Below the pieces are notes generated by a model, which searched no databases, had not been told where the DNA came from, and worked only from the letters and a program-made list of their open reading frames with translations. Positions 6,630-43,468 of a DNA stretch of 64,000 nucleotides are shown piece by piece (positions within the stretch are counted from its first letter, which is position 1; the number at the start of each line of letters is the position of its first letter). Source of the stretch: Escherichia coli (lineage in GTDB: Bacteria; Pseudomonadota; Gammaproteobacteria; Enterobacterales; Enterobacteriaceae); assembly GCF_003018255.1 (NCBI RefSeq), contig NZ_CP027440.1; one strand, written 5' to 3'. The position numbers and the translations under genes are program-made.

Positions 6630-7289
6630 TTATTGCAATTGCACAAGAGTCAGTTCGCCCCCAAAGACAGCACCGGTATCAATATAATGCAGGTTGCCAA
6701 TATCCACGCGATGTCGCAACGGTGTATGACCAAACCAGAAATGATCAGCACCTTTAATTCCCTGCCCTTTTGGGCGTTCACCTAATCGCGAGCGGCTCCA
6801 CAAGACCTGATGCAAATCAACGTCCTTTTGCCATTCATAAACATCATCCGGATAATCGGCATGGGCAATAACATGTTTGCCGGTGCGACTGTGTACTTCA
6901 AGAATAAAGGGCAAATGCTGACATTTTTCCAGCGCCGTTTTCGCTTGTTTCTGTTGATTATCTGCCAGCGCAATAAACCAGTCGCCGCCATTCATGAACC
7001 ACAAAGACATCTGCTGGGATGCCAGCGCATCCATCGCCATCTGTTCATGATTGCCTCTTACCGCACGAACCCAATGTTGTTCCAGTAACTGCAGGCAACG
7101 TAAACTTTGCGGCCCACGATCGATAACGTCTCCCACTGAGATAAGTAAATCTCGCCACGGATCAAAACGACAATGCCATAATTTGCGGCGCAACTGCTCA
7201 AGACAACCGTGTATATCGCCTGAAAGCCAGATATGTCGCCATTGATGACCCGCAATTCTCTGATAAACGGGCGCAGGCTGTTTCATCAA
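6630..7289 (-). CDS. pphA: Serine/threonine protein phosphatase 1 (lambda-phosphatase-like metallophosphoesterase)
   Basis: 219 aa with metallophosphatase motifs GDIHG, GDVIDRG, GNHE. Matches PphA/PrpA. Confidence 0.85.
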   Translation of the reverse strand: MMKQPAPVYQRIAGHQWRHIWLSGDIHGCLEQLRRKLWHCRFDPWRDLLISVGDVIDRGPQSLRCLQLLEQHWVRAVRGNHEQMAMDALASQQMSLWFMNGGDWFIALADNQQKQAKTALEKCQHLPFILEVHSRTGKHVIAHADYPDDVYEWQKDVDLHQVLWSRSRLGERPKGQGIKGADHFWFGHTPLRHRVDIGNLHYIDTGAVFGGELTLVQLQ

Positions 7290-7384
7290 TATTTTCCTCC
7301 CGCGCTAAAGATCACATAATCTTAACAAGAATGTTAAAAAACGCTGGACGCAGACAGTAGAGTGTGTGTTATGGTTGACTATAA

Positions 7385-7652
7385 AGTCAGCGAAGGGAAT
7401 GCTTCTGGCTTTTAACAGATAAAAAGAGACCGAACACGATTCCTGTATTCGGTCCAGGGAAATGGCTCTTGGGAGAGAGCCGTGCGCTAAAAGTTGGCAT
7501 TAATGCAGGCTTAGTTGCCTTGCTCTTTAAGAATAGATGACGACGCCAGGTTTTCCAGTTTGCGTGCAAAATGGTCAATAAAAAGCGTGGTGGTCATCAG
7601 CTTAAATGTTAAAAACCGCCCGTTCTGGTGAAAGAACTGAGGCGGTTTTTTA
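7385..7652 (+). ncRNA. ryeA: RyeA (SraC) small RNA, antisense to and fully overlapping SdsR
   Basis: Established locus organisation (RyeA encoded opposite SdsR between pphA and yebY). A plus-strand hairpin plus T-tract at about 7613-7651 can serve as its terminator. The 5' end is not determinable from sequence. Confidence 0.45.
7420..7523 (-). ncRNA. sdsR: SdsR (RyeB) sigmaS-dependent small RNA
   Basis: Minus strand reads GCAAGGCAACTAAGCCTGCATTAATGCCAACTTTTAGCGCACGGCTCTCTCCCAAGAGCCATTTCCCTGGACCGAATACAGGAATCGTGTTCGGTCTCTTTTT, which matches SdsR as I recall it. A CTATTCT -10-like element lies just upstream on that strand and a GGTCTC-T-tract terminator at the 3' end. Confidence 0.7.
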
Positions 7653-7680
7653 TTGGAAATCAAAAGGCTATTTTAGGTAA

Positions 7681-8022
7681 TTAACAGAGTTTTTCAGCTC
7701 GCTCTATAAACGGTGCCAGACTCATTTTTTCGCCGGGATTGTTAGGATCATCAATCTGAATCACCGAAATGGGTTGGGCTTTAGTCTTCCCACTGGCAAC
7801 TTCCTTTTGTGCGATATCGTTTAACGGATACTGCACGAGGGTACTTGGGTTGATGACATACAAAGCATTACCCGGTCGGCAAGTCAGCATCACCTCTTCG
7901 CGATTAAACGCCCATTTGTCTTTACCCACTTCAAAACGGCTGACGGTAATCACCTGCGGTGCCGCCAGCGCCGCTGCAGAACTGGTGAGTAACAGAAACG
8001 CCAGAATACTTTTTTTCATCAT
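7681..8022 (-). CDS. yebY: Secreted DUF2511-type protein YebY
   Basis: 113 aa with N-terminal signal peptide ([20 protein letters not shown]); last gene of the yobA-yebZ-yebY cluster. Confidence 0.8.
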
Positions 8023-38618: not shown

Positions 38619-38721
38619 ACTGCCGGATGCGGCGTGAACGCCTTATCCGGCCTACAAAACCTTGCTAATTCAATATATTGCAGGGACTATGTAGGCCTTA
38701 TAAGCATAGCGCATCAGGCAG
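38619..38721. repeat. REP pair (BIME) between cmoB and torZ
   Basis: TGCCGGATGCGGCGTGAACGCCTTATCCGGCCTAC, then an inverted copy (GTAGGCCTTATAAGCATAGCGCATCAGGCA); followed by a GC hairpin plus T-tract at about 38731-38758. Confidence 0.6.

Positions 38722-42632: not shown

Positions 42633-43468
<836 letters not shown>

Follow-up and report, generated by a model that had tools for sequence, protein, structure and literature searches.

The sdsR/ryeA antisense small-RNA locus between pphA and yebY in an Escherichia coli chromosome, in a K-12-like state

The DNA analyzed here is a 64,000-nucleotide stretch of the Escherichia coli contig NZ_CP027440.1 (hereafter, the window), in which the genes pphA (6630..7286) and yebY (7681..8022), both on the minus strand and both taken from the open reading frame (ORF) list and from annotation, are separated by a spacer at 7287..7680. 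An initial annotation made from the letters alone had held that this spacer is not empty and that an overlapping antisense pair of small RNAs (sRNAs) fills 7382-7652 of it; the spacer is indeed occupied, although it is 394 bp long and not 390 bp as stated there. In the curated MG1655 record (NC_000913.3), ryeA (b4432; 1923066..1923337, plus strand) and sdsR (b4433; 1923104..1923207, minus strand) are both annotated between pphA and yebY, and we transferred these two features to the window by a global alignment of the window to the MG1655 locus. Placed in this way, ryeA (sraC) lies at 7383..7653 on the plus strand, 1 nt away from the extent first proposed, and specifies an ~271-nt antisense sRNA covering all of sdsR (ryeB), which lies at 7421..7524 on the minus strand (104 nt per RefSeq). 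Since sdsR is wholly contained within ryeA on the opposite strand, one locus yields two RNAs of which the shorter is completely complementary to the longer. Both the ORF list and the MG1655 annotation put sdsR directly downstream of yebY, its conserved upstream neighbor, on the same strand, and this is the position that sdsR has been reported always to take (PMC3333887). Among the records examined, sdsR and ryeA features are present only in the curated MG1655 entry; in RefSeq E. coli genomes annotated with PGAP, such as NZ_AP045067.1 (1538..1931), the pphA-yebY spacer is blank.

The whole window was scanned against Rfam 15 at gathering thresholds. The SdsR_RyeB model (RF00111) matches 7421..7520 on the minus strand over its full length (model positions 1-100 of 100; 114.4 bits against a gathering score of 38; E = 1.8e-21), and the SraC_RyeA model (RF00101) matches 7417..7561 on the plus strand, likewise over its full length (1-145 of 145; 176 bits against 37; E = 1.6e-40). 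Matches of this strength on both strands are far beyond chance, sdsR/ryeA is really present in the sequence, and nothing in the sequence speaks against the identification. It should be noted that RF00101 exceeds its threshold on the strand opposite SdsR in Shewanella and Paraglaciecola as well, and in an Erwinia MAG (47-95 bits); because it fires even there, the Rfam match to RyeA is largely a mirror image of SdsR, and we rejected it as independent proof of RyeA, the model mirroring SdsR wherever SdsR occurs. The case for RyeA rests instead on its collinearity, at 98.5%, with the K-12 gene mapped by experiment, promoter and terminator included. Elsewhere in the window, the same scan returned three further curated sRNAs: MicL (42634..42941, minus strand; 371 bits, full length), C0465 (56187..56264, plus strand; 103 bits), and ES036/CssrF (38656..38698, plus strand), the last at 45.5 bits, slightly over its gathering score of 37.6.

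In K-12, the SdsR start site was mapped by Choi et al. (2019) to a position lying 1 nt further downstream than the older 5' end, equivalent to 7523 in the window, and the 3' ends to +100..+102, equivalent to 7424..7422 (PMC6610125); the transcript with these experimentally mapped ends runs from 7523 to 7422 on the minus strand and is 102 nt long. Ahead of the start site, the minus-strand sequence TCTATTCTTAA carries the -10 hexamer TATTCT (7535..7530) with a C at -13 (7536), followed by an A/T-rich discriminator, and the strand reads ...CTGGAAAACCTGGCGTCGTCATCTATTCTTAAAGA up to the start site and GCAAGG from there on. A -35-like TGGAAA (7557..7552) is separated from the hexamer by a 16-nt spacer, so that the sdsR promoter, as read from the sequence, spans 7530..7557. 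The -10 element with its -13C and the A/T-rich discriminator are features that would confer sigma-S selectivity on this promoter; the -13C and the sigma-S dependence of sdsR have been described by Frohlich et al. (PMC3333887), and E-sigmaS transcribes sdsR in vitro (PMC6610125). At the opposite end, a terminator scan and folding both identify a Rho-independent terminator with an 11-bp stem at 7427..7455, after which the strand continues with CUCUUUUU and forms a U-tail at 7426..7421. The 104-nt RNA as a whole folds at -34.6 kcal/mol (z -3.7). A complete SdsR, a sigmaS-type -10, and an intrinsic terminator had all been recognized on the minus strand in the initial annotation. All three are borne out, SdsR by the full RF00111 model and by identity to K-12 over 7422..7523, and the terminator by its 11 pairs and its U-tail, as is the proposal in that annotation of a longer antisense RyeA on the plus strand that ends at a distal hairpin.

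For ryeA, we assign by our own reading of the sequence a putative sigma-70 promoter at 7345..7375 on the plus strand, made up of a probable -35 element, TGGACG (7345..7350), and a probable extended -10, TGtTATGGT (7367..7375), which precede the start site, an A at 7383. Both the start site and the extended -10 are identical to K-12, from which the promoter differs by a single SNP at -33 (7350). E-sigma70 alone transcribes ryeA in vitro, and primer extension and RACE have mapped both ends of RyeA in K-12, with a processed 5' end at the annotated +1 (window 7383) and 3' ends that fall within the distal hairpin and its U-tract, at +261..+270 (PMC6610125). In the window, this hairpin is a bidirectional intrinsic terminator at 7611..7650 that ends RyeA on the plus strand (U6 at 7646..7651) and yebY on the minus strand: it folds equally well on both strands (-20.0 kcal/mol, z -4.9, on the plus strand; -19.8 kcal/mol, z -6.5, on the minus strand) and therefore also serves as the yebY terminator. 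The whole RyeA transcript has a folding z of -4.1. The ryeA (plus) and yebY (minus) transcripts are convergent at the hairpin, and the sdsR promoter begins ~55 bp beyond it on the minus strand. A generic sigma-70 promoter scan called neither the sdsR nor the ryeA promoter, as is to be expected when the first is of the sigma-S type and the second has an extended -10. The generic terminator scan picked up the SdsR terminator and missed the hairpin at 7611..7650, because the stem is interrupted and the loop exceeds the limit of the scan; direct folding was used in its place.

Alignment to the annotated K-12 genes leaves SdsR without divergence, the mapped transcript (7422..7523) being identical at 102 of 102 positions, while RyeA carries three substitutions (7397, 7524, and 7603) and one T fewer over 272 nt (98.5% identity). 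Across the spacer, the window has G where K-12 has T at 7350, G for A at 7397, T for C at 7524, and T for G at 7603, and it is one T shorter in the run after 7645. Strain JNE23-011 has an identical 471-bp region (100%), and Nissle 1917 and ATCC 11775 match it at 99.8%; the region is found in 5425 of 5426 complete E. coli genomes, and sdsR is at least 99% identical in 5208 of these 5425. The allele seen in the window is common to many E. coli genomes, among them strains such as Nissle 1917 and E2348/69, which we take to be members of phylogroup B2. The copy of sdsR/ryeA in the window is thus essentially the K-12 sequence of a locus that is already known and well characterized. Two copies in the E. 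coli collection stand out by their context: one sits on a record classed as a plasmid, and in NZ_AP027783.1 (2685..3893), from a human fecal isolate, an IS4-like (IS4-family) ISVsa5 transposase element lies inside sdsR at approximately window positions 7496..7516. The latter is a natural sdsR/ryeA knockout.

Three of the differences from K-12 fall at regulatory positions, namely 7350 in the -35 region of ryeA (-33), 7524 at position -1 of SdsR, and the RyeA terminator, which has U6 in the window and U7 in K-12. Judged from these positions, a shift in the RyeA:SdsR balance, and in read-through into pphA, relative to K-12 is conceivable, though we consider it decidedly unlikely; if it did occur, it would amount to a lineage-specific re-tuning of a known circuit. 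A second reading built on the changes at 7350 and in the T-run after 7645 is that RyeA is absent or present at an altered level in this strain, leaving a locus that is effectively sdsR alone. We find this very hard to credit: other genera with the same promoter motif also have G at the position of 7350 (TGGACG), the extended -10 and start site of ryeA are the same as in K-12, a strong GC stem followed by U6 still makes a canonical terminator, and the ryeA allele of the window is common to many E. coli genomes.

The ORF list also contains a 63-aa frame over sdsR (7387..7578, minus strand), which the initial annotation had set aside as almost certainly not a real protein. The frame opens with a TTG 55 nt upstream of the SdsR start site, has no stop within the SdsR transcript, and runs on through the terminator; among the matches listed, 2 of 121 loci retain its start, and its stop varies from +71 to +428. 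Among the same 121 loci, the usual first in-frame start is an AUG at SdsR +24, which opens a frame of 37 codons. That the 63-aa frame is open in this strain, and that the AUG at +24 is conserved, might be read as signs that one or the other encodes a real small protein; this AUG, however, lies in the invariant RNA core, no Shine-Dalgarno sequence was seen before either start on reading the sequence, and the frames are unannotated in the MG1655 and PGAP records examined. An NCBIfam search with the 63-aa ORF and two other ORFs overlapping the locus gave no family match, and a protein reading of all three was rejected on that ground and for want of conserved ORF boundaries. The 63-aa ORF is not a gene, and we give a protein-coding reading of either frame virtually no credence. 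Recognizing sdsR and ryeA avoids both the blank spacer left by PGAP and the spurious 63-aa protein that ORF callers can put there.

An exact-pattern scan for the SdsR core motif, with one genome per species, returned at least 120 loci; among the matches listed, nearly all are from Enterobacterales, with the remainder from Shewanella, Paraglaciecola, and a few MAGs. We measured conservation as identity to the window in a 104-locus enterobacterial alignment drawn from among these listed matches. Identity is 0.90-1.00 over SdsR +21..+100 and 0.69-0.77 over the sdsR promoter (-40..-1), and it falls to the background level of 0.2-0.3 outside the SdsR terminator, that is, in the 5' part of RyeA; the RyeA -10 region stands at 0.61, and in the hairpin at 7611..7650 the stems are better conserved than the loop. 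In the SdsR terminator, compensatory changes occur in 5 of the 11 pairs across 32 diverse orthologues, 99.1% of cells are paired, and the covariation score was reached by none of 500 shuffles. The corresponding analysis is uninformative for the central stem, which the search pattern itself had fixed, and in the 5' stem the 5' ends align poorly, so pairs there are not reliably countable. The K-12-type ryeA promoter motif (TGGAC-N-TATGGTT) is present in 22 of 114 loci among the matches listed, from genera that include Escherichia, Citrobacter, Enterobacter, Cedecea, Leclercia, Kluyvera, Atlantibacter, and Pseudescherichia; the G found at 7350 in the window (TGGACG) is the form in Citrobacter, Enterobacter, Pseudescherichia, and Atlantibacter. 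Conservation is thus confined to SdsR and its promoter, whose sigma-S-type -10 and -13C are kept from genus to genus, with the RyeA-only parts poorly conserved, a pattern that reproduces the published view of SdsR as the selected element and SraC/RyeA as variable: in the study of Frohlich et al., roughly half of the species surveyed had SraC, which the authors considered dispensable for the control of SdsR (PMC3333887).

The SdsR homologues beyond Enterobacterales, from five Shewanella loci and one of Paraglaciecola, and likewise that of the Erwinia MAG, keep the 3' two-thirds of the RNA (UAGCGCACGGCUCU..., the central stem, and the terminator) behind an unrelated 5' part. In four of these loci, three from Shewanella and one from Paraglaciecola, the Rfam SdsR model scores 62-87 bits, and in the Erwinia MAG locus 90.5 bits, in every case above its gathering score. 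RF00101 fires opposite SdsR in all five of the scanned loci, there purely as a mirror image.

The last 23 bp of ryeB (7421..7443 in the window) have been identified as a prophage attachment site, according to the review PMC7380047, which cites Balbontin et al. (2008). In ~236 of the 5425 complete E. coli genomes, the match to the window is split at ~7420, at the sdsR 3' end, and in STEC 2013C-4538 (NZ_CP027582.1, 2547..4035) a prophage integrase, an excisionase, recET, and ralR adjoin the split point; the split genomes and the phage-side junction fit the published attachment site at the ryeB 3' end. In the window, the site is unoccupied, the sequence being collinear with K-12, and RyeA consequently keeps the chromosomal, K-12-type 5' end and promoter. 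Taken together, the feature in the window is almost certainly the sdsR/ryeA (ryeB/sraC) locus of the E. coli chromosome, K-12-like and with no prophage inserted. The phage-side junction of the E. coli lysogen recurs as the alternative RyeA upstream region of E. albertii, Salmonella arizonae, C. amalonaticus, and K. oxytoca: among the matches listed, another 12 species loci have a junction beside sdsR that differs from the K-12 type and is shared with the E. coli lysogen (...TTGTTGTG(A/G)TATAA...). At those 12 loci, the 5' part of RyeA and its promoter appear to come from acquired DNA. When the integrase-att junction from the lysogenic E. coli genome was searched against a phage collection, one record came back, PP818812.1 (46270..47508), assigned to the Actinobacillus phage vB_Apl-pPE4; over 1.2 kb it matches the integrase-att end of the prophage at sdsR in E. 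coli with 97% identity. Such a match is odd for the stated host, the record may be mislabeled or contaminated, and it is uninformative as to which phages use the sdsR site.

The window itself shows the identity of the sequence and its positions, the motifs of the promoters and terminators, how the RNAs fold, and how far they are conserved; expression pattern, targets, the roles of Hfq and RNase III, and toxicity would carry over from the literature on K-12 and Salmonella. On the minus strand, the sigma-S-type promoter (TATTCT, -13C) would drive an SdsR of ~102 nt to the Rho-independent terminator. By analogy with K-12 and Salmonella, where SdsR is known as an abundant, Hfq-associated, RpoS-dependent RNA (PMC3333887, PMC6610125), it would act in stationary phase as an Hfq-associated, trans-acting sRNA that base-pairs to repress tolC, yhcB, mutS, and ompD; an RNase E-processed form beginning at +31 also exists according to the literature. 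Some transcription would pass the SdsR terminator into pphA, as in K-12, where sdsR-pphA dicistronic read-through has been shown and gives the main pphA transcript (PMC6610125). On the plus strand, a sigma-70 promoter would drive RyeA (~271 nt), fully complementary to SdsR, to the hairpin shared with yebY. In K-12, SdsR and RyeA promote each other's degradation and ryeA transcription interferes with the convergent sdsR promoter (PMC6610125), and RyeA may here, too, limit SdsR during exponential growth in both ways, through a duplex that leads to RNase III-dependent mutual degradation and through transcriptional interference.

This control of SdsR by RyeA, by duplex degradation and interference, is what has led to the type VIII (RNA-RNA) toxin-antitoxin (TA) label for the pair, and the statement in the initial annotation that the two RNAs have been described as toxin and antitoxin agrees with PMC6610125 and PMC8610362, which list sdsR-ryeA as the type VIII prototype. 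If the locus were primarily a genuine type VIII addiction or stress module, SdsR would kill or arrest cells by repressing yhcB, a gene located outside the window, and RyeA would neutralize SdsR. The complete containment of SdsR within RyeA, and hence their full complementarity, is in line with such a module, as are the reports, in the same two papers, that ectopic SdsR expression kills cells and that RyeA overexpression relieves the effect. The toxicity, however, is an overexpression phenotype, and the high natural level of SdsR in stationary phase does not kill cells. The distribution of the sequence also points the other way: conservation is limited to SdsR and the sigma-S promoter, with RyeA-specific sequence at background (0.2-0.3), the ryeA promoter motif occurs in just 22 of 114 loci among the matches listed, and SraC, present in about half of the species that Frohlich et al. 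studied, was judged by them to be non-essential for controlling SdsR (PMC3333887). We therefore regard a primary TA function as unlikely and the TA framing as a secondary reading whose label rests on ectopic overexpression. The best-supported role of SdsR, drawn from K-12 and Salmonella, is that of an RpoS-dependent, Hfq-associated trans-acting regulator, and a core regulator SdsR with RyeA as a lineage-variable damper fits the conservation better than an obligate TA pair. The locus is biologically important: it encodes a regulator that depends on RpoS and acts on genes for the envelope, efflux, and mismatch repair, it is the type VIII TA prototype and the driver of pphA expression, and it contains an attachment site for prophages. 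Each of these points has been published.

Set against the systems already described, the SdsR of the window is the K-12 RNA (RyeB, RF00111) in its transcript, its position downstream of yebY, its sigma-S-type promoter, and its terminator, the sole difference being at window position 7524 (-1, formerly +1), where the RNA strand has A here and G in K-12. RyeA shares with its K-12 counterpart (SraC, RF00101) the start site, the extended -10, and the terminator hairpin, and differs from it at 7397, 7524, and 7603, in the terminator (U6 here, U7 in K-12), and at -33 (G here, T in K-12). With the type VIII TA system of Choi et al. (2018, 2019), of which sdsR-ryeA is the prototype, the window has in common the locus itself and the complete antisense overlap, whereas conservation suggests that SdsR, and not the pair, is the selected unit. 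Finally, the loci of Salmonella and of lysogenic E. coli with a prophage at the ryeB 3' end (phage PhiW104; Balbontin et al., 2008, as cited in PMC7380047) have the same sdsR and the same 23-bp site, but in these lysogens the 5' part of RyeA is phage-derived, whereas the site in the window is empty.
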